A program made the position numbers and the translations under genes. Shown piece by piece: positions 38,217-57,405 of a stretch of DNA of 64,000 bases. The stretch covers positions 306,475 through 370,474 of the forward strand of contig CBDCCZ010000018.1 of assembly GCA_965215005.1 (NCBI GenBank). The letters are read 5' to 3'. Source of the stretch: Kofleriaceae bacterium. GTDB taxonomy: Bacteria > Myxococcota_A > Polyangia > Haliangiales > Haliangiaceae. How positions within the stretch are numbered: the stretch's first letter is position 1; each line of letters opens with the position of its first letter. The notes below the pieces were generated by a model. It ran no database searches, was not told the origin of the DNA, and worked only from the letters and a program-made list of their open reading frames with translations.

Positions 38217-39773
38217 TCAGCGTTTGCGAGTGTCGATGATCCCTGAGAGACGCGCGTTGGGAAACAGCCGGTAACCCTGCACGTCTACATTCATGAGCGC
38301 GACGTTGTCCTCGTGCCATAGCGGAATGATCGGCACGTCGCGCGCGAGAATCTGCTGAATCTCGCTGTAGACCTGCATCCGACGCTCGCGGTCCATGGTT
38401 CGCCGCCCCTCTTCGATGAGCGCGTCGACCCGCGGATTGGCGTAGCGCCAGCGGTTGTGGACGTTGAGGTTTTGCGGCGTGGGAATCCGCGAAGAATGAA
38501 AGTACGGATAATACCAATCGGGCTCGACGATCTCGCCGCTCTGCATGGAAGCGAGCTGATAGTTGCCCCGCTTGATGTCGGCAAAGAAGGTCCCGAATTC
38601 GTAGGCGCGAACCTCGACCTCGATGCCAACCGCGGCGAGCTGCGCGGCGATGATCCGAGCGATGACCACGCGAAACGGATCGGCGCTGGTCTTATACGTG
38701 AGGCTCAAACGCGGCACCCCACCGGGACCATCGGGGTCTGAAAATCCAGCCTCATCAAGAAGCGCCCGCGCCTTCGCAGGATCGTAGCCGTAGCGAGCTA
38801 CATCAGGCTCATAAGCCCAATGACTGGGGGCGATGAGCCCGGTCGCGAGTACGGCGCGGCCGCCAAAGCGGGTGCGGATGATGGCATCGCGGTCGATGGC
38901 GTAGGCGATGGCGCGCCGCACCCGCACGTCATTCAGCAGCGGATCGTCGCCCTGCATCATCAGGTACGAGAGAATCGTGCTGGGCCCCGAAGTCGCATAG
39001 ACCCGATCGCGCGCAGCGACATCGTCCACCAGGTCCACGCGCACCTCGTTTTGCATGAGATCGGCCGAGCCGCCAATGAGCATCAAGGCGCGCGCGTTGC
39101 CGTCTTTCACCGTGCGGATGCGCAGCTTGGGGATCGCAGGCACCGGCCCCCGCCAAAACGGATTGCGCTCGAGATAGATATCGCTCGTGCCCTTGCGAGT
39201 CACGCGAAAGGCACCCGCGCCGACGACGTTGCCGCGTGGAAATCGACCGCGGCCATCGGTCGCCGCTTTGGAGACGATGCCAAAGTCGAGATCGCTCCAC
39301 AGCGTGGCCACCGGCTCCGTTAGATGAAAGCGCGCGCGCCTGTCATCGAGCACCTCCACGCGCTCGAACCGCTCGCGAAACCCCTGCTGGTGAAAGCTCT
39401 CGAACTGCGGATCGAGCACGCTCTGGTACGTGAACGCAACATCGGCGGCAGTCACCGGTAGCCCGTTGGAAAACAGCAAGCCCGGCCGCAGCGTCACATC
39501 CCACGTGCGATCATCGACGCGCTCGATCGCCTCGGCCAGCGCCAGCTCCGGCTCTAAGCGGGGGTTGTCGAGGGTGGTGAGCCCCGGCGCGATGAGCCGT
39601 GAGATCTTGTTGTCGAGACTCCTGAGCGCATAGCGCGGGTCGAGATCGGCAACGTCGTCGCTCACGACAACTACGAGGGTGTCATCAGGGGTGCGACGCG
39701 TTCGAGCACACGCGCTCGAGCAGACGATCGCTACCACGAGAGCAATGCTAGTGTGGATGGATGGCAAGCGCAT
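38217..39773 (-). CDS. ABC-type solute-binding protein family 5, lipoprotein
   Basis: SSAC lipobox, DLDPR, VRRAIAYAIDR, YANPRVDALI. Confidence 0.88.
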   Translation of the reverse strand: MRLPSIHTSIALVVAIVCSSACARTRRTPDDTLVVVVSDDVADLDPRYALRSLDNKISRLIAPGLTTLDNPRLEPELALAEAIERVDDRTWDVTLRPGLLFSNGLPVTAADVAFTYQSVLDPQFESFHQQGFRERFERVEVLDDRRARFHLTEPVATLWSDLDFGIVSKAATDGRGRFPRGNVVGAGAFRVTRKGTSDIYLERNPFWRGPVPAIPKLRIRTVKDGNARALMLIGGSADLMQNEVRVDLVDDVAARDRVYATSGPSTILSYLMMQGDDPLLNDVRVRRAIAYAIDRDAIIRTRFGGRAVLATGLIAPSHWAYEPDVARYGYDPAKARALLDEAGFSDPDGPGGVPRLSLTYKTSADPFRVVIARIIAAQLAAVGIEVEVRAYEFGTFFADIKRGNYQLASMQSGEIVEPDWYYPYFHSSRIPTPQNLNVHNRWRYANPRVDALIEEGRRTMDRERRMQVYSEIQQILARDVPIIPLWHEDNVALMNVDVQGYRLFPNARLSGIIDTRKR

Positions 39774-41401
39774 GGGGAGACGAGTTAGCGGCCAGCCGCA
39801 GCGACTCGCTTCGAAGTGCGCCAAGCCGTTGGCTTACGCGCCTCGTCGGCGTTTGCGTCGCGCTAACTACGCTCAGTATTGACACTCAGCCGGCAGCGTC
39901 GCAAGACGACGACACCGTCGATCTCACGCCGCTGCGCGATCGCGTGTTCGGCGCCGGGCCGCCCGCTGGCGACGACGAGGTGCGACGCGACTGGCTGGCG
40001 GCGCGCATCGAAGAGCTCATCGCCGAGCGCAGCGTGCTGGCCGGCGCACGCGTAGGCATTGCGGTCGCCGATCCTCTCACGGGGCAGATGCTGTACGAGC
40101 GCAACGCCGATAGCGCCTACAGCATCGCTTCCAACGCCAAGATCGTCACCGCCGCCGCCGCGTTGGCGCTGCTCGGTCCCGAGTATCGCTATTACACCGC
40201 GGTGTTCGCCGAGCGGATCGGCGGCGCCGGAGCCGTGCTCGGCGACCTCTACGTGCGCGGCCGCGGCGACCCGAGCTTTGGAACCTGGTCGCTCGCGGAG
40301 CTCGCCGACGATATCGCCCACGCCGGCATCACCCGCATCCGCGGCGGCATCGTTCTCGATGACAGCTACTTCGACGAGGTCATTCTGCCGCCGCGCTTCG
40401 CGGACGTCGAAGATGCAGGCGATGAGCATGCTTCCTATCGCGCGCCCATCGGAGCACTCTCGCTCAACTTCAATACCTTCAACATCGTGGTCACGCCTGC
40501 CATGAGCGGTCGAGGACCGGCGCGGGTGGTCATCGAGCCGCCAAACGACTACGTGAAAATCGAGCGCGCGCAGGTCTTCACCACCACTCGCGGGCGCAAT
40601 CGACTTCGCGTGCAGACCCGCGCCGAGGGCGACCAAATGGTCGTGACGGTGGTCGGCCAGATGCGGCGCGACCGCGGCGTGGTGCGCTATCGCCGGCGGG
40701 TTTTGGATCCGGCGCAGTACTTTGGCCAGTGCTTGCGCGCCGCCCTCGAGCAGCGTGGCGTGGCCGTCGCGAATCGCGATGTTCGTCGCGGCCCGGTTCC
40801 CGATTCAGCGCTGCGCATCGCCCAGCGCAGCAGCCCGCCGCTGGCCGAGCTGATCCGAGGGCTCGGCAAGTACTCGAACAACTACGTCGCCGAGATGCTC
40901 CTCAAGACCATCGGCGCCGAGAGTGGCAGCGGCGAGCTCGAGGCGCCCGCCAGCTGGGGCGATGCGGTGGCGGCGGTGAGTCAGTTTTTGATCGACGAAG
41001 TGGGGCTCGCGCCGGGCTCGTTTCGCTTCGACAACGGCTCCGGTCTCTTCGACGCCACCGCCTTTACGCCGCGGCAAATGGTTCACCTGCTGGCCACCAT
41101 CGGCCGCGACTTTCGCTACGGCAGCGACTTGCTCTCGTCGCTATCCCTGGCCGGCGCGGACGGCACGCTGGCGCGGCGGCTCGCCGGCACCGAAGCCGAG
41201 CGTCTGGTGCGCGCCAAGACCGGCACGCTAGCGACGGTATCGGCGCTCTCTGGTTACGCCGCGATCGATGCGCGGCACCCGCTGGCCTTCGCCATCTTTG
41301 TCAATGATACGCCGCGATCCCACGCGGCGCGCTATCACGCCCGTTCGCTGCAAGACGATGTCGCCGAAGCGCTCATCCTCTATCTCCGCGGCGGCCTCTA
41401 G
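39761..41401 (+). CDS. dacB: D-alanyl-D-alanine carboxypeptidase/endopeptidase (PBP4, peptidase S13); start uncertain
   Basis: ASNAK (SxxK), GRGDP, YSNN (SxN), NGSGL, KTGT. Confidence 0.9.
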   Translation: MASAWGDELAASRSDSLRSAPSRWLTRLVGVCVALTTLSIDTQPAASQDDDTVDLTPLRDRVFGAGPPAGDDEVRRDWLAARIEELIAERSVLAGARVGIAVADPLTGQMLYERNADSAYSIASNAKIVTAAAALALLGPEYRYYTAVFAERIGGAGAVLGDLYVRGRGDPSFGTWSLAELADDIAHAGITRIRGGIVLDDSYFDEVILPPRFADVEDAGDEHASYRAPIGALSLNFNTFNIVVTPAMSGRGPARVVIEPPNDYVKIERAQVFTTTRGRNRLRVQTRAEGDQMVVTVVGQMRRDRGVVRYRRRVLDPAQYFGQCLRAALEQRGVAVANRDVRRGPVPDSALRIAQRSSPPLAELIRGLGKYSNNYVAEMLLKTIGAESGSGELEAPASWGDAVAAVSQFLIDEVGLAPGSFRFDNGSGLFDATAFTPRQMVHLLATIGRDFRYGSDLLSSLSLAGADGTLARRLAGTEAERLVRAKTGTLATVSALSGYAAIDARHPLAFAIFVNDTPRSHAARYHARSLQDDVAEALILYLRGGL

Positions 41402-41531
41402 CGCATTGGCTAGCGCTGTCAACCTCGCGAAAGCAGAGCGAAAACCCGTTAGAGCCGCGCTTGCCGCCATAGCGTCGTGCGTGCTACGACTGCGCCAGCA
41501 CCACGCAACAGGGAACTCCAGGAGAAAGTCA

Positions 41532-41951
41532 ATGGCATCGCTGAAGGGCAGCAAGACGCACAGCAACCTCAAAGAGGCATTCGCCGGTGAGTCACAGGCA
41601 AACCGACGATATCTCTACTTCGCCAAGCAAGCCGATGTCGAAGGTCACCCCGACCTCGCTGGCCTGTTCCGCGACACGGCGGAAGGCGAGACCGGTCATG
41701 CCCACGGCCACCTCGACTTCCTCAAGCAGGTCGGCGATCCGGCAACCGACGAGCCCATCGGCTCCACCCAACAGAACCTCAAGGCAGCTATCGCCGGCGA
41801 GACGTACGAGTACACCGAGATGTACCCAGGCTTCGCCAAGACCGCTCGCAATGAAGGCTTTGACGAGATCGCCGAATGGTTCGAGACGCTAGCCCGTGCC
41901 GAGCGCTCTCACGCCGGTCGGTTCCAAAAGGGTCTCGACACGATGGAGTGA
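41532..41951 (+). CDS. Rubrerythrin (short, no rubredoxin domain)
   Basis: [42 protein letters not shown]. Confidence 0.93.
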
Positions 41952-41990
41952 GGGTTTGGCGCAGGCTCGCCTGCGACTCTCACCACTCAA

Positions 41991-42025
41991 AAGCGGCTCG
42001 GGCATCACGTCCGAGCCGTTTTGTT
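41991..42025 (+). terminator. Intrinsic terminator after rubrerythrin
   Basis: AAGCGGCTCGG-N9-CCGAGCCGTTT followed by TGTT. Confidence 0.7.
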
Positions 42026-42053
42026 GTTCCAGAGCCCGCGTTATAGGAGCACC

Positions 42054-42644
42054 ATGGCCGACCTAACTCGCCCCATCACCCGCGCGGACATCAAAGGTCC
42101 TGCCGTTTACGCCGGCATGCGAGACGATTTCCGCAAGCGGATCATCGAGCTCAAGAAGCCACGCCGCGTAAGCGTCGGCGACCGCGTGACGCTGGTGTTC
42201 GAGAACCGCCACACGCTGCTGTTTCAGGTCGAGGAGATGCTGCGCGCCGAAGGGCTGCACGAAGATCGGCAGATCAACGAGGAGCTCGAGGTCTACAACG
42301 CGCTAATGCCGACCGCCGATTCGCTCTCGGCAACTCTGTTCCTCGAGGTGCCGCCCGGCGCAAATGCCCGTACCGAGCTCGATCGGCTCATCGGTCTCGA
42401 CGAGCACGTCATACTCCACATCGGGCCTCATGCTATCCGCGCCGAGTTCGAAGCCGGCCGCTCCTCCGATCAGCGCATCTCAGCGGTTCAATACACCCGC
42501 TTTCGCTTGTCGCCGGACGCCAAGCAGGCGCTGCTAGCGGCGGATACGCCGATGTCCCTCGAGATCGATCATCCCGAGTATCAGCACGTCACCCAATGCG
42601 ACGAGACCACGAGGGCATCGCTGGCCGGCGACTACGCCGGCTGA
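42054..42644 (+). CDS. DUF3501-family protein
   Basis: [36 protein letters not shown]; known neighbour of aerobic rubrerythrins; AGGAG RBS. Confidence 0.85.
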
Positions 42645-43848: not shown

Positions 43849-44943
43849 TTACCGAATCACTGCCAGCCGGGGACTCTTCTTTGGCTTGGCGAGAATCGGC
43901 TTGGCGATGTTGAGCGCCACCCGCGAGGCGATATCCATGAACGTGCGGGCGTGCTCAGAATCGGGCGAGGAAAGCACGATAGGTACGCCGCTATCGCCGC
44001 CAAACCGGATCCGCGTGTCGATAGGAATCTCTCCCAAGAACTCAGCGCCGATCTCCTGAGCCAGACGCTTGCCGCCGCCGTGCGAGAAGATCTCGTCGTG
44101 GTGACCGCACGCCGGACAGCGGTAGTACGCCATGTTCTCGATGATGCCGAGCACCGGAATCTCGACCTTCTCAAACATGGAGATTCCCTTGACCACGTCG
44201 ATGATCGAAACCTCTTGCGGAGTGGTCACCATCACCGAGCCGGCAATGGGAATCAGCTGTGACAGCGACAGCTGCACGTCCCCCGTTCCAGGCGGCAAGT
44301 CGCAAACGAGATAGTCGAGCTCCCCCCACTGCACGTCGCCCAGGAACTGCTGGAGCAGCCGATGCACCATGGGCCCGCGCCAGACCACCGCCTCTTCTTT
44401 ATTGACGAAGAAGCCCACGGAGATAACCGCCAGCCCGTGATGGACCGCTGGCGTGATGTGCTTGTCGCCAACGGCACCGGCCGGTTTGCTCGGCGGGCCG
44501 AGCATGGTCGGAATCGACGGGCCGAAGACATCCGCGTCGAGGAGCCCGACTTTGGCGCCATGACGCTGGAGCGCCAACGCGAGGTTGGTAGCAACCGTTG
44601 ATTTACCTACGCCACCCTTGCCCGCCGCCACTGCGACAACGTTCTTGGGGCCGCGTAGGAGCATCTTTTCACTGGTGGGAGGGGCGTGCGCGGTCTCCAC
44701 CTGCATATGCACTGTGACGGTCGCGGCACCCGCAGCGGTCAGTGCCTTCTTGATGCGCGCTTCGAGCTCGGCCCGCGCGCTCGGCGGATACGCGTGGGTC
44801 GGCAGGGTGATGTTGACCAGCACCTCGCTGCCCGACACTTCGGCGCTCGTGAACAACCGATACGAAACGATGTCTTTGCCGAAGGCGGGGTCGTCGACCT
44901 TGGCCAGAAGCTCTTTAACCGAGCTAGTGTCGAGCTTGCTCAT
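43849..44943 (-). CDS. apbC: Mrp/NBP35 Fe-S cluster carrier ATPase ApbC
   Basis: GKGGVGKST, DADVFGPS, WRGPM, DLPPGTGD, ENMAYYRCPAC. Confidence 0.95.
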   Translation of the reverse strand: MSKLDTSSVKELLAKVDDPAFGKDIVSYRLFTSAEVSGSEVLVNITLPTHAYPPSARAELEARIKKALTAAGAATVTVHMQVETAHAPPTSEKMLLRGPKNVVAVAAGKGGVGKSTVATNLALALQRHGAKVGLLDADVFGPSIPTMLGPPSKPAGAVGDKHITPAVHHGLAVISVGFFVNKEEAVVWRGPMVHRLLQQFLGDVQWGELDYLVCDLPPGTGDVQLSLSQLIPIAGSVMVTTPQEVSIIDVVKGISMFEKVEIPVLGIIENMAYYRCPACGHHDEIFSHGGGKRLAQEIGAEFLGEIPIDTRIRFGGDSGVPIVLSSPDSEHARTFMDIASRVALNIAKPILAKPKKSPRLAVIR

Positions 44944-48189: not shown

Positions 48190-48537
48190 TTAGCCGGCCT
48201 TCTTACGCTCATCTGGATTCTCGTCGAGCCACGCTTGCAGACTCTCTGGAGTGATTTCCACCACCAGATCCTCATCGGCCACCCGCACTTGGCATCCAAG
48301 CCGCGACTCCGCACGCACGTCGAACGCTTTATCGAGAATGTCGTCCTCCATGTCACTCATGTCGTCGAGCGAATCGAAGCCGCGCTCGATCCACACGTGA
48401 CACGTCGAGCAAGCGAGATTGCCGCCGCACGCGTGCCCTACGCGAGCGCCGCATTCTTCGGCCGCCTCGAGCACTGTGACGCCTCCATCGACCTCTATCG
48501 TGCGCTCGTCGGGGTTGAGAAACGTTATCTTTGGCAT
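48190..48537 (-). CDS. fdx: ISC [2Fe-2S] ferredoxin
   Basis: HACGGNLACSTCHV, SRLGCQ. Confidence 0.94.
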   Translation of the reverse strand: MPKITFLNPDERTIEVDGGVTVLEAAEECGARVGHACGGNLACSTCHVWIERGFDSLDDMSDMEDDILDKAFDVRAESRLGCQVRVADEDLVVEITPESLQAWLDENPDERKKAG

Positions 48538-48550
48538 CGCTATCTCCGCC

Positions 48551-50453
48551 TCACTTCGCAGGCCCGCCAATTCGGCGCTCGACCTCATCGACGCTATGGC
48601 CGCCAATGGCGGCGCTGATCGCCCGATTCATGCGCTCCTGGGCAAACGGCTTTGAGGCGTGGTCGAGCGCTTCGATGCGCGAGCGGATCTGCAAGTAATC
48701 CTCTCCAGCCATCGCCGCTTCGAGCTCTGCCATTGCCGCTAGCGTAGCCTCGCGAACCGCCGGTTCGAGCAGCGCCGCATCGCGCTCCATCGCTGCGCGG
48801 GTCGCATCGAGGATGCGCTGCGCCTCGATGCGCTCGGTTTGCAGGTTGCGCCGCAACAGATCGTCTTCGGCGTGCTCGAACGACTCTAGGAGCATGCGCT
48901 CGACCTCTTCATCCGTGAGGCCGTACGACGGCTTGACCTCGATTTCGTTCTCGATGCCGGTCATCTGCTCGCGGGCCCGCACCCGCAACAATCCGTCGGC
49001 GTCGATCATGAAGGTGATCTCGAGACGCGCGGCGCCGGCGACCATCGGCGGAATGCCTTTGATCTGAAACTTCGCCAGCGACCGGCATCCGTCGACGGTC
49101 TCGCGCTCGCCCTGCAACACGTGAATGTCGAATCCGGTCTGGCGATCGGCGTAGGTCGTGAAGACCTGCTGCGCGCCGCAAGGAATGGTCGAATTGCGAT
49201 AGATGATCTTCTCGACCACGCCGCCCATGGTCTCGATGCCAAGAGACAGCGGAATGACGTCGAGGAGCACGACCTCTTGCGAGCCGCCAGCGAGCATGTC
49301 GGCCTGTGCAGCAGCGCCCAGCGCCACCACGTGCTCGGGATCGAGATCGCACAGCGGCTCGCGGCCAAACAGCTCCGCGACATACGCCTTGACCACCGGC
49401 GAGCGAGTCGAGCCACCCACCAAGATGACTCCATCGAGCTCGCTCTTGCGGAGCTCCGCATCGCGCAGCGCCCGCTTGCAGGCGGCAGCGGTGCGCGCAA
49501 GCAGCGGCTCCATGACGCGGCCCAGCTCCTGCCGACTCACCCGTCGTTCGAAGAGGCGGCCGTTGGGTAGCTCGAGCGAGAATAGCGCTTCGTCGGCCTC
49601 GCTGAGCCGCTCTTTCACCGAGCGCGCCGCGGCCAACGCACGGCGAACCAGCCGCCGGTCGCCTCCGCCTTCGGCCAATCCCGCCTCGGAAAGCAGCTGC
49701 TCGGCGAGGAGCCGGTCGAAATCGTCGCCACCAAGCGCCGAGTCGCCACCGGTCGCGCGCACCTCGAAGACGCCCTCGATCAGCTTGAGGATCGAGATGT
49801 CGAACGTGCCGCCCCCCAAGTCATAGACAGCGTAGAGCCCTTGCGAGCCGCGATCGAGGCCATAGGCGAGCGCCGCGGGCGGTTGGCTCGGCCAGAAGCC
49901 GCATGACGTCGAGTCCTGCCAAGCGGCCGGCGTCGCGAGTGGCCTGGCGCTGCGCATCGTCGAAGTAGGCAGGCACGGTGATGACCGCCGCCTCTACCTC
50001 CCCGAGCTGCGCCTGCGCGCGGCTCTTGAGGGCAGCCAGAATTTCGGCCGAGACCTCCACGGGCGTGACCGCTCGCTCGTTACCGGCAACCGCAAATCGC
50101 ACCACCCGGTCATCGGAGCTGGCGTGAAAGCGATACGGTGTCATCGCTCGCGTGGCTTCGGCATCGCGTGCCCCGCGGCCAACGAACCGCTTGGCGCTGG
50201 CGATGGTGTCGCTGGGACTCAACGCGGCACGCGCGAGCGCCTCGCGACCGACGATGACCTCGCCTCCGGGAGCGTAGTGAACCACCGAAGGCACCAGCGC
50301 TTCACCATCGGTATCGCGAATGATGGCCGGCGCACCGTCGACGACGTAAGCGATCAGGCTGTTGGTGGTGCCAAGATCGATCCCAACGGCGCGCGTTTTA
50401 CACGCCTCTTTGGGCGCAGAAGCACCGGGCTCGGAAATTTGGAAAAGACTCAT
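48551..50453 (-). CDS. hscA: Fe-S assembly chaperone HscA; +1 frameshift at ~49878
   Basis: [38 protein letters not shown] joined by removing one [15 protein letters not shown]. Confidence 0.93.
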
Positions 50454-51011
50454 AGCTCTCCCTCGATGTCGACTTCGAACTCCTCGAGGTAGCGACGGAT
50501 GTAACGCAAGAGAATCAGCTCACGCTTGAGCGAAGCCAGCACCTCCGCGCGCTCACCGCGGCCTGCTTCGAGCTCGCCAAACCCCGCGCCAAGGCGTTCG
50601 AGCGCCTCGTACTCGCGGTCTTCCATTTGCTCCTCGAGGCGGCCGAGCAAGACGCGATCGCCGCGCCGCTTGGCTTCCGCAAGCTCTTCGCGCAACTCGA
50701 GAATCTCTAGCAGAAACGTCGGATCGAGCTGCTCATTGGCGCCAATGGTGACCCCTTCACGAGCCAACAGATACTCCGCTCGAGGAGCTGGCTTGCGCAG
50801 GGTCTTGTAGGCATCGTTTAACTGCATCGACTTCTGCAGCGCCGCCACACGCTCGCCGGCGTCTGCGTTGATGAAGCGATCCGGGTGCACCTGCTTGGAG
50901 AGCTCGAGGTAGCGCTGCTCTAGCTCGCCGCGGTCGATAGCGAAGCGCGACGGTAAGCCGAGCAGCCCGAACAAATCGCCGGTGCCGCTCTTGGACTCAG
51001 ATAAAACTCAT
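50450..51011 (-). CDS. hscB: Co-chaperone HscB; +1 frameshift near start (~51004)
   Basis: HPDRF J-motif, [21 protein letters not shown] and ATG at 51011 give [17 protein letters not shown] after removing one T. Confidence 0.88.
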
Positions 51012-51108
51012 CGATTAGCTCCCGAAGACGCAGGGCCGCCAAAGACGCAGGTGGAGAGAGGATCGCGGCGCGAGCAACGCAGGCCGTGGATCTTCGCGGC
51101 AGCAGTCG

Positions 51109-51501
51109 CTAGAACTGCACCGATTCGCCGCAGCCGCAGGCGCCCTTGGCATTCGGATTGTTGAACTTGAAGCCGTGCCCCATCATCGTGCGCACGAAGT
51201 CGAGCTCGGTGCCTTTGAGATACACGAAGCTCTTGGGGTCGACTAGCAAGATCACGCCGTGCTGCGCGAACACCTTGTCGGTCGCGCGCGGCTCTCCGTC
51301 CGACCATTCGAACATGTACGAGAAGCCGGTGCAGCCGCCGCCGCGAATGCCCACGCGAATCGCTGCCGCGGGCGTGCCGCGTTTTTGCCGCTGGCGATCG
51401 ATCTCCTGCGCCGCCGATTCGGTGATGAGGATCGCCGGCGGCTTGGCCTCCACACCGGCGGCAGGAGCAGCGCCCATCGTCTCGGTCTGAACGTTCTCCA
51501 T
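51109..51501 (-). CDS. iscA: A-type Fe-S carrier IscA
   Basis: [25 protein letters not shown]. Confidence 0.93.
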
Positions 51502-51502
51502 G

Positions 51503-51884
51503 CTACCTGCTGCTCTTCTTCTTGTAGTCCTCGATAGCTGCCTTGATGGCATCCTCGGCGAGAACCGAACAGTGGATCTTGACCGGCGGCAGGTTGAGCT
51601 CCTTGGACGATCTTGGTGTTCTTGATCTCCGCCGCTTCTTCGATGGTCATTCCTTTGATCATCTCAGTAGCGAGCGAGGACGACGCGATCGCCGAGCCGC
51701 AGCCAAAGGTCTTGAAGCGCGCATCCGCGATGCGACCGTCCTTGACCCGAATCTGCAGCTTCATCACGTCGCCGCACGCAGGTGCTCCGACCAACCCGGT
51801 GCCGACATCCTCTTCGGATTTGTCGAGCGAGCCGACGTTGCGGGGATTTTCATAATGATCGATGACTTTGTTGCTGTACGCCAT
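51503..51884 (-). CDS. iscU: Fe-S scaffold IscU; +1 frameshift at ~51605
   Basis: [35 protein letters not shown], then |[20 protein letters not shown] after removing one C. Confidence 0.95.
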
Positions 51885-51901: not shown

Positions 51902-53125
51902 CTAGTGCGGCGTCCATTCGATGGATTTTATGTCGATGCCTTCCTGGTGCATTTCCCAGAGAGGCGAGAGCTCACGGAGCCGGTTGACCGACCTCACGAC
52001 TAGGTCGACCACGTAGTCGACCTCTTCTTCGGTGTTAAAACGGCCCAGGCCGAAACGAATCGAGGTGTGCGCCAACTCATCACCCACGCCGAGCGCTCGC
52101 AGCACATACGACGGCTCGAGCGAAGCCGAGGTGCATGCCGAGCCCGACGACACGGCAACGTCTTTGAGAGCCATGAGCAGCGACTCGCCCTCGACAAAGG
52201 CGAACGAGATGTTGAGGTTGCCCGGCAAACGATGCTCCATCGAGCCGTTGACGAACACCTCATCGAGCTGCGAGCTGATGCCGCGGTGAAGACGCTCGCG
52301 CAGTGCTCTGATGCGCTTGACCTCGCTGGCCATTTCTTCCTTGGCGAGCGCAGCGGCCCTGCCGAAGCCAGCAATCATCGGAACTGGCAACGTGCCCGAG
52401 CGCATGCCGCGCTCATGACCGCCGCCATCGATGAGAGGGTCGATTCGCACCCGCGGCTTGCGTCGCACCCACAGCGCGCCGATGCCCTTGGGCCCGTACA
52501 TCTTGTGCGCCGACATCGCCACCAAGTCGACGTTCATCGTGCTCACGTCGAACGGCAACTTACCGACGCTCTGTACCGCGTCGCAGTGAAACACGACCTT
52601 GGGATTCTTTGCCTTGATGGCCGCGCCAATCTCAGCAATGGGCTGCACGACGCCAATCTCGTTGTTGGCGTGCATGATGCTGACGACCGTGGTCTTGTCA
52701 GTCATCGCCGCCACCACCTGCTCTGGCGTCACCAGCCCGTCGTCTGCGGGCCGCAGAAAGGTGACTTCGTAGCCCTCGCGCGAGAGGCGCTTGCAGGTAT
52801 CGATAACCGCCTTGTGCTCGGTTTCGACCGTGATGATGTGATTGCCGCGCCGCTTGTTGAAGGACGCCGCGCCCTTGATGGCGAGGTTGTCGGACTCGGT
52901 CGCGCCGGAGGTGAAGACGATCTCTTTGGCGGTGCCGCCAATGAGCGCCGCAATTTGCTCGCGCGCTAGATCGACCGCGGCCTCGGCGTCCCACCCGAAG
53001 GCGTGATTGCGGCTAGCGGCGTTGCCGAACTTTTCCGTGAAATACGGCAGCATCGTCTCGACGACACGCGGGTCGACCGGCGTCGTCGAGTGGTTGTCCA
53101 TGAAAATGGGGAGCTTGAGCGCCAT
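51902..53125 (-). CDS. iscS: Cysteine desulfurase IscS
   Basis: [52 protein letters not shown]-terminal tail. Confidence 0.97.
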
Positions 53126-53126
53126 G

Positions 53127-53675
53127 TCAGTGGGTTTCCTCGTGTTCCTTCTTGAGGTCGGAGGCGGGCACGTCGTACCCGCCGCTCGCAGCGGTCTGCG
53201 ACAGTCCGGCAAACAGCGGCGGCGCCGTGCCTCGCTCATGCCCCTGGTGATCGCACGAGAGGCATTCGGTGGGCGTGTAGCTCGGCGAGCACTGATGGCA
53301 CGAGTCGAGATACTCGAGCGCTTCTTCTAGATCGTTCTCGATCACCCGCAGCTGGGTGATCTGGCCGCGAATGGCGTCGAGCTTGGCGCGGAATACCGAA
53401 CGCGCGTGGTCCGTGGCTTCTTTGCCCGAGTTTGCCTGCTCGAACTCCGCAACGAATCCTTGAATTTCCGAGAGCTTGAAACCGATCGCCTGCAGCTTGA
53501 TGATCCAGTGGATGCGGTCGGCGGCATCCGGCGCGTAGAGACGAAAGCCGCCTTCGGTGCGCATGGCAGGCTGAAGCAGCCCGAGCTCCTCGTAGAGATG
53601 CACGGCGCGGACGGTCTTAGTGACTGCCTTGGCCAGCTCGCCTACTCGAAGAAGTTTGCCGTGCTTTCCCGCCAT
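53127..53675 (-). CDS. MerR-family transcription regulator with C-terminal CxxC-x8-CxxC
   Basis: [40 protein letters not shown], coiled coil, [16 protein letters not shown]. Stop lies 1 nt before the iscS ATG. Confidence 0.9.
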
Positions 53676-53694: not shown

Positions 53695-53787
53695 AACCGA
53701 ACGTGCACGTAAGGGTTGGCTGTCGTTGGGAGACTATGGAGGTGTGGGATAGCCGTGTCAACCGCAATCTCACGTGAACGTAAGGGA
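53695..53787 (-). promoter_or_regulatory. Promoter of merR-isc operon with two palindromic operators
   Basis: Minus strand TTGACA (53761-53756)-N17-CATAGT (53738-53733). Operator cores ACGTGCACGT (53701-53710) and ACGTGAACGT (53772-53781), each followed by AAGGG on the plus strand. Confidence 0.75.
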
Positions 53788-53951
53788 TCCGGTCGCGAGC
53801 AACCGGGGAAGCCGGCGGTGTTCAAGGAGCCGGCATGATGCCGCCATTCCCATCCCGCGCGCGTGTGGCCGCGCTCGATCCCGCGCAGCGCGTGCCTCGC
53901 GAGAACGAGCGCGTGCGTCTCGAGTACGCGGACTTCTCCGTGGCGGACGGT

Positions 53952-55520
53952 TCAACTCGCCGTCGCGACGGCTTCGTACGCGCGAATTACCGTGACCTTG
54001 ATCTGCCCCGGAAAGGTCATCTGCTCGCTGATCTCTGCGGCGATGTCGCTCGACAGCTCGACGACGTCGAGGTCCGACAGCTCTTTCTCCCGCACGTAGA
54101 CCCGCAGCTCCCGCCCCCCGTGCACCGCGTGGGCGCGCTCGACACCGCGGTGGTGGGCGCCGATTCGCTCCAGATCATCGAGCTTGGCGCCAAAGCCTTC
54201 GGTCGCCTCTCGCCGGGCTCCAGGACGCGCGCCGCTCATCGCATCGGCGGCAGCCACGAGGTATGCGTATACCGAGCTCGGCGGCTCGTCGGCGTGATGC
54301 GCGCCGATCGCATTGGCAATGATTTCGTCCTCGCCGAGACGCCGCGCAATGTCGGCGCCGATCACCGCGTGGGAGCCTTCAATCTTGTGCGTGAGCGCCT
54401 TGCCGATGTCGTGCATCAGCGTCGCGCGGCGCGCCAGCTTGACGTCGAGCCCCATCTCCGCCGCGATCATGCCGCCCAAGAACGACGCCTCCACGGCGTG
54501 CAGCCACTGATTTTGTGTGTAGCTGGTGCGGTAGTTGAGAGCGCCCACCAAGTCGACGATTTCATCGTGCGCCTTGGGAATCTGCAGCACCGCGAACGCC
54601 TTCTTGCCGAGCGCGCGAATCTCCTGCTCGAGAGTGCTGCGAATGCCCCCAGCCCAGGCCTGCGGATCGGCAAGGCACGCCTGCACTTGGCTCTTGCGCT
54701 TGCCCAGCCGCGTGAGCGCCCGCCGAGCAACCTCGCGCCCCACCCCATCGAGCCCGTCGAGGCGAATGGCATCGCCGTCATCGCCGATCAGCAGCGCAAT
54801 ATTTGCCGCATGTTCCAGTGCCTGATGGACGCGGCCGCCATCGCTCTGGAGAAGCTGGCAAATCTCTTCCCCCACACGCAGCGTCGAGCGATTGCGCTCG
54901 GTCAAAAAGTGATTCTTGTAGCGACCCGAGGCGATGTCCATAAATCGCTTGGCAGCGCGATCGTAGCTCGGATCTGCCGCGCCTAGATCGACACCACGCA
55001 GCCGTGCCGCCGCCTCTGCCTGCGCCTCTTCGAGCCAGCGACTGGTGAGCAGCTCCTGCATCTCGCTGCTCGCCATCTGCGCGGCGCCCTCGAGCTGCGC
55101 TCGCGCCTGCTCGTGACGCTCGGCCGCCCGCCGCTTGCCCTCTTGCGCCGCTTGCCGCTGCGCTTTGGCCGCGTCTTGACGGGCGTCGAGCTCTGCATGC
55201 GCGCGGTCGACCTCGGCAGCGTCCTCGTCGACAGCAGCGGCACGCCGCTCGGCACGCTCTTGCCGGCGCGCTAACTCCTCGGTGCCCTTGGCGATGGCAT
55301 CCTCCGCCAGCGCGCGTTGCTCGAGCGCCTCCTCGCGAGCGGCGGTCTCGGCGGCGCGCCGCAACGCCGCGGCCTCGAGCCGCGCCCCACGCACCGCCGC
55401 CTTGGCCTCGGCGTGGGCGGTTTCGATGACCCGCCGGTGACGCTGCCGCGCGGCCGTGCGCACCACCACCATGGCGACTACCGCAGCGACGGCTCCAACG
55501 ACGACAGCAATCCAGAACAT
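53952..55520 (-). CDS. rny: Ribonuclease Y-like protein (TM, coiled coil, degenerate KH, HD, C-terminal domain)
   Basis: YRTSYTQN, MHDIGKA, GSHAVIGA, AADAMSGARPGARRE, GGRELRV, FPGQIKVTVIR. Confidence 0.85.
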   Translation of the reverse strand: MFWIAVVVGAVAAVVAMVVVRTAARQRHRRVIETAHAEAKAAVRGARLEAAALRRAAETAAREEALEQRALAEDAIAKGTEELARRQERAERRAAAVDEDAAEVDRAHAELDARQDAAKAQRQAAQEGKRRAAERHEQARAQLEGAAQMASSEMQELLTSRWLEEAQAEAAARLRGVDLGAADPSYDRAAKRFMDIASGRYKNHFLTERNRSTLRVGEEICQLLQSDGGRVHQALEHAANIALLIGDDGDAIRLDGLDGVGREVARRALTRLGKRKSQVQACLADPQAWAGGIRSTLEQEIRALGKKAFAVLQIPKAHDEIVDLVGALNYRTSYTQNQWLHAVEASFLGGMIAAEMGLDVKLARRATLMHDIGKALTHKIEGSHAVIGADIARRLGEDEIIANAIGAHHADEPPSSVYAYLVAAADAMSGARPGARREATEGFGAKLDDLERIGAHHRGVERAHAVHGGRELRVYVREKELSDLDVVELSSDIAAEISEQMTFPGQIKVTVIRAYEAVATAS

Positions 55521-55597
55521 CGCTCTAGCCTAGCCGATTTCGGCGTTTGGCCCGCGGCGCATTGCGGCGGGAACGACGCCGGTCCTTGCCGATGCGT

Positions 55598-56767
55598 TCA
55601 TCCTCCCGCGCAAAACTGCACGTAGTCGATGAGCTCGATCTCGCTGCGATCGACGCCCTCGCCGCAGGTCGGGCACGCAGGATCGCGCCGAAGCTTGAGC
55701 TCACGGAACTTGGTTCGCAGCGCATCGTAAACGAGCAAGCGCCCCGCCAGCGACGTGCCGATCCCGAGCACGAGCTTGACCGCCTCGGTCGCCTGCAGCA
55801 CGCCCATGATTCCGGGCAGCACCCCGAGCACGCCCGCCTCCTGGCACGACGGCGCCTCTTCCGGAGGCGGAGGCTCGGGATAGAGGCAGCGGTAGCAAGG
55901 CGCGCCGTCGCCTGGAAAGACAGTGATCTGACCTTCGAAGCGAAAGATCGACGAATGCACCACCGGCTTGCCCAGCTTGAGCGCTGCGTCATTCAGCAAA
56001 TAACGGGTGGCGAAGTTGTCGGCCCCATCGACGATGACATCGTACGGAGCGATCAGCTCGAGCACGTTGTCCGAGGTCATCCGCAGCGCGTGCTTGTTGA
56101 TCTTGACGTCGGGATTGAGCTTGCTGAGCGTGAGCTCGGCGCTATCGACCTTGGGCATGCCGATGCGATCGGTGGCATGAAGAATTTGTCGCTGCAGATT
56201 CGAAGCGTCGACGACATCGTCATCAACGAGGCCGACGGTGCCCACGCCCGCAGCCGCCAGATACAGCGACGACGGCGACCCGAGCCCGCCCGCGCCAATG
56301 CACAACACCTTGGAGCGCAGCAGCGCGATCTGCCCCTCTTGCCCCACTTCCGGCAGCATCGTGTGCCGCGAGTAGCGAACCTCTTGCTCCGGCGTCATCA
56401 CGATGGGCGTCTTAAACGCGTACCCGGAGCGCTTCCAGGCGCCAAACCCGCCGGCCATCGACCTCACATCGGTGTACCCGAGCTCGCGCAAGCTTCGCGC
56501 CGCCAGCGCCGAGCGGGTGCCACCAGCGCAATACAGCACCACCGGGCGGTCTCGCTCCGCGACCAGATCTTCGATGCGAAGCTCGAGAAATCCCCTCGGG
56601 ATCCACCGCGCGCCGGGAATATGCCCTTGGACATACTCATTTTGCTCCCGCACATCGATGAGGGTGACCGGGCCCAGTCCGCTCTCAACGAGCTCCTTGA
56701 CCTGTTGCGCGTCGGTCTCGGCAATCTCAGCTTTGATGGCTTCCAGATAGGTTTGAAACGTCGGCAT
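55598..56767 (-). CDS. moeB: Rhodanese-ThiF/MoeB sulfur-carrier adenylyltransferase (MoeZ-type)
   Basis: N-terminal rhodanese YCAGGTRS; RYSRH, GAGGLG, SNLQRQ, PCYRC, CPTC. Confidence 0.92.
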   Translation of the reverse strand: MPTFQTYLEAIKAEIAETDAQQVKELVESGLGPVTLIDVREQNEYVQGHIPGARWIPRGFLELRIEDLVAERDRPVVLYCAGGTRSALAARSLRELGYTDVRSMAGGFGAWKRSGYAFKTPIVMTPEQEVRYSRHTMLPEVGQEGQIALLRSKVLCIGAGGLGSPSSLYLAAAGVGTVGLVDDDVVDASNLQRQILHATDRIGMPKVDSAELTLSKLNPDVKINKHALRMTSDNVLELIAPYDVIVDGADNFATRYLLNDAALKLGKPVVHSSIFRFEGQITVFPGDGAPCYRCLYPEPPPPEEAPSCQEAGVLGVLPGIMGVLQATEAVKLVLGIGTSLAGRLLVYDALRTKFRELKLRRDPACPTCGEGVDRSEIELIDYVQFCAGG

Positions 56768-56904
56768 GAGCTCCTCGAGTTTGTTCGTAGTCGGCCATCG
56801 CGCTGCTGTCAAACGGTTTCATCACAAACCCGACCGGACATATCGGAAATTCGTGGCAAAGGATGCCACTCGCGGCCCTTGCTCGCGACCGCGCGGCCGC
56901 CCCT

Positions 56905-56966
56905 TTGACAGCGCCCGTCTCCGTCGCCATAGTGGACTTCACGCAACCCTTACCTGCACGTAAGCC
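56905..56966 (+). promoter_or_regulatory. erpA promoter with the same operator as the isc promoter
   Basis: TTGACA (56905)-N17-CATAGT (56928); CAACCCTTACCTGCACGTAAG at 56944-56964. Confidence 0.75.
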
Positions 56967-57000
56967 TGAGAGTGGTTCGTCCCCAGGCGCATCAGCGAGA

Positions 57001-57405
<405 letters not shown>

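Follow-up and report, generated by a model that had tools for sequence, protein, structure and literature searches.

The dedicated regulators described for iron–sulfur (Fe–S) cluster assembly are Rrf2 proteins, such as IscR and RisR, or the ArsR-like SufR (PMC9973013). What, then, does a MerR-family gene do at the head of an isc operon? The question is raised by a 64,000-nt stretch of a Kofleriaceae genome (contig CBDCCZ010000018.1, positions 306,475–370,474; hereafter the window), in which a gene for a four-cysteine MerR-type protein opens the isc operon and closely similar palindromes lie at the promoters of that operon and of erpA. Here, we analyse these sites across the genome (6,209,310 bases (6.21 Mb), 92.8% complete; the scope of all genome-wide scans below) and across its relatives. 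We consider it likely, with a probability of roughly 0.68, that the protein is a dedicated regulator of Fe–S cluster biogenesis and a predicted repressor of isc and erpA that acts through a 22-bp site.

The regulator is the first gene of the isc operon, and its stop codon lies one base ahead of the iscS ATG. Together with the predicted promoters and operators, it is placed as follows.

53127..53675, minus strand: MerR-family regulator, 182 amino acids; Pfam PF13411/PF00376/PF09278 (MerR/MerR_1/MerR-DNA-bind) above cut-off
53733..53761, minus strand: sigma70-type promoter of merR–isc, TTGACA-N17-CATAGT; −35 at 53761–53756, −10 at 53738–53733
53695..53716, minus strand: operator O1, ACCCTTACGTGCACGTTCGGTT; 26.4 bits; begins 16 bp past the −10 box
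53766..53787, minus strand: operator O2, TCCCTTACGTTCACGTGAGATT; 27.4 bits; ends 4 bp upstream of the −35 box, 71 bp from O1
56905..56933, plus strand: sigma70-type promoter of erpA, TTGACA-N17-CATAGT; −35 at 56905–56910, −10 at 56928–56933
56946..56967, plus strand: erpA operator, ACCCTTACCTGCACGTAAGCCT; 22.2 bits; begins 12 bp past the −10 box

The original prediction had described two 18-mers downstream of the −10 boxes, matching at 17 of 18 positions, and a third site at 53769–53784, and had assigned all three to one regulon of the adjacent MerR protein. The sites are present as described, and comparison with relatives extends the operator to a 22-bp palindrome (consensus ACCCT(T/C)ACGT-NN-ACGT(A/G)AGGGT), longer than first described. 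If transcription starts 7 bp past the −10 box, O1 would span about +10 to +31. The prediction had proposed a genome scan with a position weight matrix, and with a matrix built from 166 unique sites of other genomes exactly three sites reach the 11-bit threshold genome-wide (27.4, 26.4 and 22.2 bits), all of them in the window and with no fourth; the next best scores 10.8. In a Markov-simulated genome, a single site came up at 11 bits, and 13 bits was never reached. At up to two mismatches, the 14-mer TTACGTNNACGTAA matches four times in the window against 0.25 expected, a count reached in 0 of 100 shuffles; the extra match, at 39426, falls within a coding frame and scores below 11 bits in the matrix. 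Operators with a centre of 0, 1, 3 or 4 bp were also sought in this genome, where the best reaches 20.1 bits, and were not taken as promoter sites. At two other loci, the operator is near-perfect except that its centre measures 3 bp (L048:9333) or 1 bp (L044:1722), so the dimer may tolerate spacing variants. Several operator sites overlap a second copy offset by 6 bp.

Gene and operator travel together. At E below 1e-20, 52 of 61 related genomes have an ortholog of the regulator; in a sample of the phylum, 46 of 201 genomes have one, and in GTDB 501 stretches with the gene were found. In 96 of 100 loci, iscS or iscA/sufA is the next gene after the ortholog, and the remaining four stop at a contig end; the same placement before an Fe–S operon holds in 26 of 26 distant loci (38–50% identity) and in all 65 metagenome loci with room for it. 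That the motif would be conserved at orthologous promoters was borne out: the operator lies upstream of the ortholog in 96 of 97 relatives (a set that overlaps the matrix-training genomes, and whose single miss has a 23-bp variant), 26 of 26 distant loci and 72 of 74 metagenome loci. As controls, the upstream regions of rny, the RNase Y-like gene (0/54), and of apbC (0/16) lack it, which removes both genes as candidate members, and shuffled sequences gave 2 in 1,950. The exact degenerate operator occurs in 22 of the 46 phylum genomes with an ortholog against 0 of the 155 without; allowing one mismatch, the counts among relatives are 46/52 and 2/9. Some orthologs head suf operons instead of isc (L037 and several metagenome loci), and where the regulator gene has moved inside the suf operon (genome G004), the operator remains at the operon's promoter (L138). 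Nine Fe–S stretches from eight genomes without the ortholog carry no site, and in two of them an Rrf2 gene heads suf. The present genome encodes a sole Rrf2 protein above cut-off; it is free of cysteines, and its gene stands ahead of one that is cysteine synthase-like. The matrix scan and this co-occurrence uphold the assignment of the three sites to one regulon of the adjacent protein, and we regard it as very likely from the sequence comparisons that the four-Cys MerR protein binds them.

The position of the sites bears on what binding would do. Activating MerR-family sites lie at a fixed 7–8 bp from the −35 box, inside 19–20-bp spacers (PMC5045206, PMC11672702). The merR–isc promoter pattern is found in 87 of 97 ortholog upstream regions, with CATAGT as the −10 box in 82 and a 17-bp spacer in 79 of the 87. 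An O1-equivalent site lies downstream of the −10 box in 86 of these promoters (16 bp past it in 58), and O2 lies upstream of the −35 box in 79, at 4–6 bp from it in 73 of the 79; the two operators are 71–74 bp apart in 68 of 78. Among distant and metagenome loci, the operator may begin at any offset between +23 and +50, counted from TTGAC, which suits steric occlusion and not a fixed activation register. No −35/−10 pair puts any of the window's three sites into the classical MerR activation register, and of the 470 (redundant) site entries from all loci compared, 3 agree with a 19–20-bp register, each weakly. The proposal that the protein represses instead of twisting DNA is thus strengthened by the 17-bp spacers, the sites outside them and the sliding offsets; given binding, we judge repression likely.

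The protein itself is recognizably of the MerR family but falls below every NCBIfam equivalog cut-off, those of CueR, ZntR, MerR, CadR and SoxR included. Many of its orthologs are automatically annotated as ‘copper efflux regulator’, and a search of the ESM Atlas returned only generically named MerR clusters, mostly from Myxococcota. Its only cysteines form the pattern C126-x2-C129-x8-C138-x2-C141, and all four are invariant in 26 of 26 aligned orthologs; they are present in 80 of 80 metagenome relatives (sought with a query alignment selected for this motif), and the CxxC-x8-CxxC spacing occurs in 232 of 302 motif-bearing proteins among 386 compared. Two histidines near the Cys loop are conserved among close relatives only. 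A structure model shows the N-terminal winged helix–turn–helix head of MerR proteins followed by the long dimerisation helix (residues 84–127), with the Cys loop poorly modelled (predicted local distance difference test (pLDDT) 53–60). A two-copy model, made to look for the family's homodimer with its antiparallel coiled coil, scored 0.71 against 0.00 for the best control. The score lies above a mark that 20 of 30 solved homodimers attain, as does 1 of 23 single chains, with contacts agreeing to at least 94% between runs and pLDDT of at least 86. The ligand lies outside this score, which probably reflects likeness to solved MerR dimers and is silent on the cofactor. The genome holds 11 MerR-like genes, and the site lies upstream of the regulator gene only. 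Two other proteins were seen in passing: in this genome, L339:1095-1604 encodes a BldC-like helix–turn–helix joined to a domain resembling photoactive yellow protein (111.7 bits against a cut-off of 143), and L237:6133-6777 is a more distant Cys4 MerR paralog, without operator or Fe–S neighbours, beside a GTP cyclohydrolase II-like gene.

Around the regulator, a run of minus-strand genes reads moeZ, an RNase Y-like gene, the MerR-family gene, iscS, iscU, iscA, hscB, hscA and fdx. The plus-strand gene erpA is transcribed away from moeZ.

48190..51884, minus strand: iscU, iscA, hscB, hscA and fdx; domain scan; order kept in relatives
51902..53125, minus strand: iscS, cysteine desulfurase; PF00266; follows the regulator in nearly all loci
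53952..55520, minus strand: RNase Y-like gene between moeZ and merR; domain and NCBIfam scans; without operator
55598..56767, minus strand: moeZ/moeB-type rhodanese–ThiF fusion; domain and NCBIfam scans; divergent from erpA
57007..57405, plus strand: erpA, A-type Fe–S carrier; NF010147 ErpA, 118.3 bits, cut-off 117

One public-run contig spans 52877–58000 with zero differences; it possibly derives from the source sample and hence is not independent support. iscU (near 51600) and hscA (near 49900) each contain one frameshift, and the iscU break coincides with the junction of two public-run contigs, so an assembly error is likely there; several further genes at 58–64 kb appear frameshifted. The RNase Y-like gene lies upstream of the regulator, without an operator, in most loci of the order and class. 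apbC/Mrp (43849–44943) lies about 9 kb downstream of the regulator, here and in at least 16 related loci, with no operator, and a gene that reads as rubrerythrin-like is followed by DUF3501 at 41268–42644, near the isc cluster. Four hybrid operons (L058, L059, L069 and L120) combine the regulator with iscS–iscA and then show no hscB, hscA or fdx matches; in L058 and L059, a distant SufS-like match follows about 5.8 kb further on. Just upstream of the moeZ −35 box (TTGACA at about 56812, minus strand), a box at 56826–56852 reads ACAAACCCGACCGGACATATCGGAAAT, with similar text in L056, L058, L115 and L120. The box looks like a site of the Rrf2 type, and its reader may be the Cys-less Rrf2 protein before the cysteine synthase gene (L001).

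What links isc to erpA? Both promoters read TTGACA-N17-CATAGT, as had been claimed; no further exact copy exists in the whole genome, and the pair are the two best of six sigma70-like sites between 47500 and 58000. The shared promoter had been offered as part of the link, and this part did not hold. A TTGAC-N16-19-YATA pattern occurs at 0 of 39 erpA genes of relatives, and CATAGT, CATACT and TATAGT boxes are also seen here in front of unrelated genes; it is the operator that connects isc with erpA, and not the promoter. We also rejected CATAGT as a sigma-32-type or regulon-specific box, its upstream C enrichment being modest (0.34–0.67) and the box occurring at unrelated genes too. The two 17-bp spacers have 6 of 17 bases in common, too few for the erpA promoter to have been copied recently from that of isc, and a duplication from isc to erpA was rejected. 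The operator occurs at 27 of 39 erpA loci and in 11 of 30 genus-spread genomes from five genera, this genome counted. At 25 of these 27 loci, the promoter is another one (its −35 mostly TTGCCR, followed in all by N17-TAAGGT), and the site overlies its spacer and −10 box; the start codon often follows some 7–8 bases later. On these comparisons, erpA is a real but lineage-specific member of the predicted regulon. In some relatives the short intergenic gap puts the operator within about 20–40 bp of the moeZ start, so moeZ may be co-regulated there. The expected enrichment at other Fe–S genes was found in part: suf operons of relatives do carry the operator, and apbC fell away with the control counts above. 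sufB and sufD gave no match in this genome.

Beyond the Fe–S genes, the operator recurs before genes for regulators. Among the matches listed, 20 remote sites divide into 12 before a sigma-32-like gene, two before erpA, one before a suf operon and five (L147, L150 and L153–L155) to which no target could be tied and which may be chance. The sigma-32-like gene is present in 12 of 36 genomes of the family, and all 12 copies have the site (23.8–30 bits) downstream of a TTGAC promoter; entries from other rpoH-like clades have it in 0 of 10. Seven sigma-32-like members lie outside the family: one has a 21-bp variant of the site, and four are separated from the regulator gene by 2–6 kb, of which three run divergently to the RNase Y-like gene. 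The erpA site is present in 0 of 9 genomes with the sigma-32-like gene against 11 of 21 without, a comparison spanning few genera. In another family, the site precedes a gene for an extracytoplasmic function (ECF) sigma factor, either directly (L224) or through a second regulator copy that is followed by the ECF sigma gene (L227, L231, L233 and L239), and in one genome it precedes a CRP/FNR gene (L225). Sought as a target in the present genome, the sigma-32-like gene yielded only another, 38%-identical paralog without the site (genome 92.8% complete). In some of the sigma-32-like proteins whose genes lie under the operator (L182, L183 and L189–L191), the C-terminus is a short tail rich in Cys.

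We propose the following mechanism. A homodimer would bind the 22-bp palindrome; at its own operon, both O1, within the first transcribed bases, and O2, immediately upstream of the −35 box, would be occupied, and since the two lie about seven helical turns apart, binding may be cooperative or form a loop. At erpA, a single site over the start region would be occupied. In each case, RNA polymerase would be blocked at an otherwise strong 17-bp promoter. An Fe–S cluster made by the very system that the protein controls would most likely sit in the Cys4 loop, where the dimerisation helix ends. By this scheme, it is the cluster-loaded form that represses, and repression would be released once the cluster is lost or oxidised, as under iron shortage or oxidative stress, giving negative feedback like that of IscR and RisR. 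Which form of the protein binds DNA is a matter of inference, and the cofactor assignment is the weakest step of the mechanism; by analogy, we lean only slightly towards Fe–S as the signal. The core regulon would be the regulator's own isc or suf operon, while the accessory members differ between lineages, with erpA in this one and, in others, a sigma-32-like factor, an ECF sigma factor or a CRP/FNR gene. More tentatively, and short of an even chance in our view, these proteins could form a widespread class of Fe–S-binding MerR proteins, in which an activator has turned into a position-independent repressor that replaces IscR and RisR across several myxobacterial families, with the sigma and CRP/FNR wiring as a second tier set off by Fe–S status and a subgroup of loci that keeps a near-classical site inside the spacer.

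Several observations weigh against the proposed Fe–S-responsive repressor, beginning with the motif statistics. The strict operator pattern is missed by 24 of the 46 ortholog genomes and by this genome, and the relatives' matrix was trained on 27 sites that lie partly in the test set; as kin are not independent, the co-occurrence counts are descriptive. For erpA, 24 of the 27 sites fall in one clade, and the five basal entries of the tree nearest this protein lack an erpA site. Canonical MerR proteins remain on DNA with or without their ligand, so release from a downstream operator would need an atypical switch. The spacing CxxC-x8-CxxC differs from the SoxR motif and fits a Zn or mononuclear Fe site as well. 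The geometry, too, has its exceptions: at six suf-linked metagenome loci (L294, L295, L300, L311, L326 and L329; TATGAT/TACGAT box, with sufA/sufC following where the contig allows), the −35 box is weak, the spacer measures 18 bp and the site is offset by +3 from that box, near the activation register, and the tight distance of O2 to the −35 box could mean activation.

This subgroup and the placement of O2 make a dual or ancestral activating mode possible, in which O1 represses and O2, or the in-spacer site of the near-classical loci, activates upon a signal. A similar place upstream of the −35 box before several sigma-32-like genes adds to its appeal; yet the downstream site stands alone in most distant loci, the promoters already combine a consensus TTGACA with a 17-bp spacer, and the entries that fit a 19–20-bp register are few and weak, which leaves a dual regulator improbable. 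Somewhat more weight, although still well short of the proposed Fe–S reading, goes to the same protein, sites and repression with another ligand: the Cys4 loop may bind Zn or another thiophilic metal, or sense thiol oxidation, and the regulon would then answer to metal or oxidative damage of Fe–S proteins instead of cluster supply. The motif resembles Zn-knuckle spacing, the best NCBIfam scores come from the ZntR and CueR models, far below cut-off, and stress-type sigma factors lie under the operator. Against this minority alternative, no metal efflux or chaperone gene appears among the three sites or the identified remote targets, the linkage to Fe–S assembly operons of both types is near-invariant and the inter-subunit Cys of ZntR and CadR is missing. 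Far less probable than either is that a different protein, a LiuR ortholog or another MerR paralog, reads the sites and the adjacent gene is a passenger. By the original prediction, the ACGT-NN-ACGT core of the operator resembles the LiuR box; the genome contains 10 other MerR-like matches, and one genome (G009; 92% complete, in 560 contigs) has a strong site before a sigma-32-like gene and no ortholog match. The exact operator is, however, absent from all 155 phylum genomes without the ortholog, no site lies at amino-acid catabolic genes or elsewhere in the genome, none of the nine other MerR-like proteins scanned passes a curated cut-off, and paralogous regulator copies have their own upstream site (L227, L229, L231, L233 and L239). 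We therefore return to the four-Cys regulator as a predicted Fe–S feedback repressor and compare it with known systems.

Like LiuR, the regulator is a MerR-family protein and a predicted repressor, and the original prediction had taken LiuR as the relevant motif type; the three sites genome-wide, however, are all at Fe–S genes and none at Ile/Leu/Val genes, and this part of the prediction is not supported. A Cys4 loop is not known as a feature of LiuR. The role described for LiuR is repression of branched-chain amino acid use (PMC3223726, PMC5343134). By sequence and fold, the nearest relatives are the CueR, ZntR, CadR and MerR sensors, with which the system shares the 21–22-bp palindromic operator known from CueR-type sensors (PMC5045206). 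It differs from them in its scores (50–65 bits against cut-offs of 143–168, under half), in having no efflux targets and no 19–20-bp spacer, and in its ligands: ZntR, CadR and MerR use a Cys at the start of the dimerisation helix (PMC9909328), whereas 2 of 26 orthologs have a Cys in residues 80–95. In this class of sensors, the partner subunit supplies a Cys or Ser ligand.

SoxR offers a parallel for the cofactor: past its dimerisation helix, four Cys that belong to a single protomer hold a [2Fe–2S] cluster (PMC9909328). The regulator likewise combines the MerR fold with four Cys after that helix (Foldseek match 2zhg, E 5.9e-6), and just as SoxR controls the downstream regulator soxS (PMC11672702), this family appears to control downstream regulators, the sigma factors, in some lineages. 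In contrast to SoxR, however, it scores 37.7 with TIGR01950 (cut-off 116.9), its motif is CxxC-x8-CxxC and not CIGCGCLSxxC (PMC11672702), and its site lies outside a 17-bp spacer, whereas SoxR activates from inside a long one. The system offers a test of a MerR protein that switches off DNA binding instead of twisting DNA and, if the wider class proposed above is true, its near-classical in-spacer subgroup would give a natural series for a MerR activator becoming a repressor.

In function, the likeness is to RisR and IscR, and the protein would fill the place that IscR has in E. coli. In Myxococcus xanthus, the Rrf2 protein RisR in its holo form represses isc and suf by occlusion (PMC9973013). 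The regulator described here equally heads an Fe–S assembly operon, is Cys-rich, has a palindromic promoter site and is predicted to exert negative feedback over isc and suf; it shares with the class of Fe–S feedback regulators (IscR, RisR and SufR) a place at the head of isc or suf with a conserved promoter operator. It differs in having a MerR instead of an Rrf2 fold (only MerR domains were found), four Cys in CxxC-x8-CxxC instead of three, and a 22-bp ACCCTYACGT-NN palindrome in place of GAC-N7-GTC. The word ‘MerR’ does not occur in the RisR paper (PMC9973013), and the literature searched, largely outside the subscription journals, yielded no MerR regulator of isc or suf. As read from sequence, this is a conserved Fe–S regulon on a MerR scaffold, apparently undescribed so far. 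Its precise 22-bp operator, three-site regulon and four candidate ligands make it directly testable in vitro and with reporters, and it predicts a link from Fe–S status to sigma factors of unassigned role in myxobacteria. If the assignment is true, the use of a MerR protein in the control of Fe–S assembly would be a further independent recruitment, beside those of the Rrf2 proteins and SufR.

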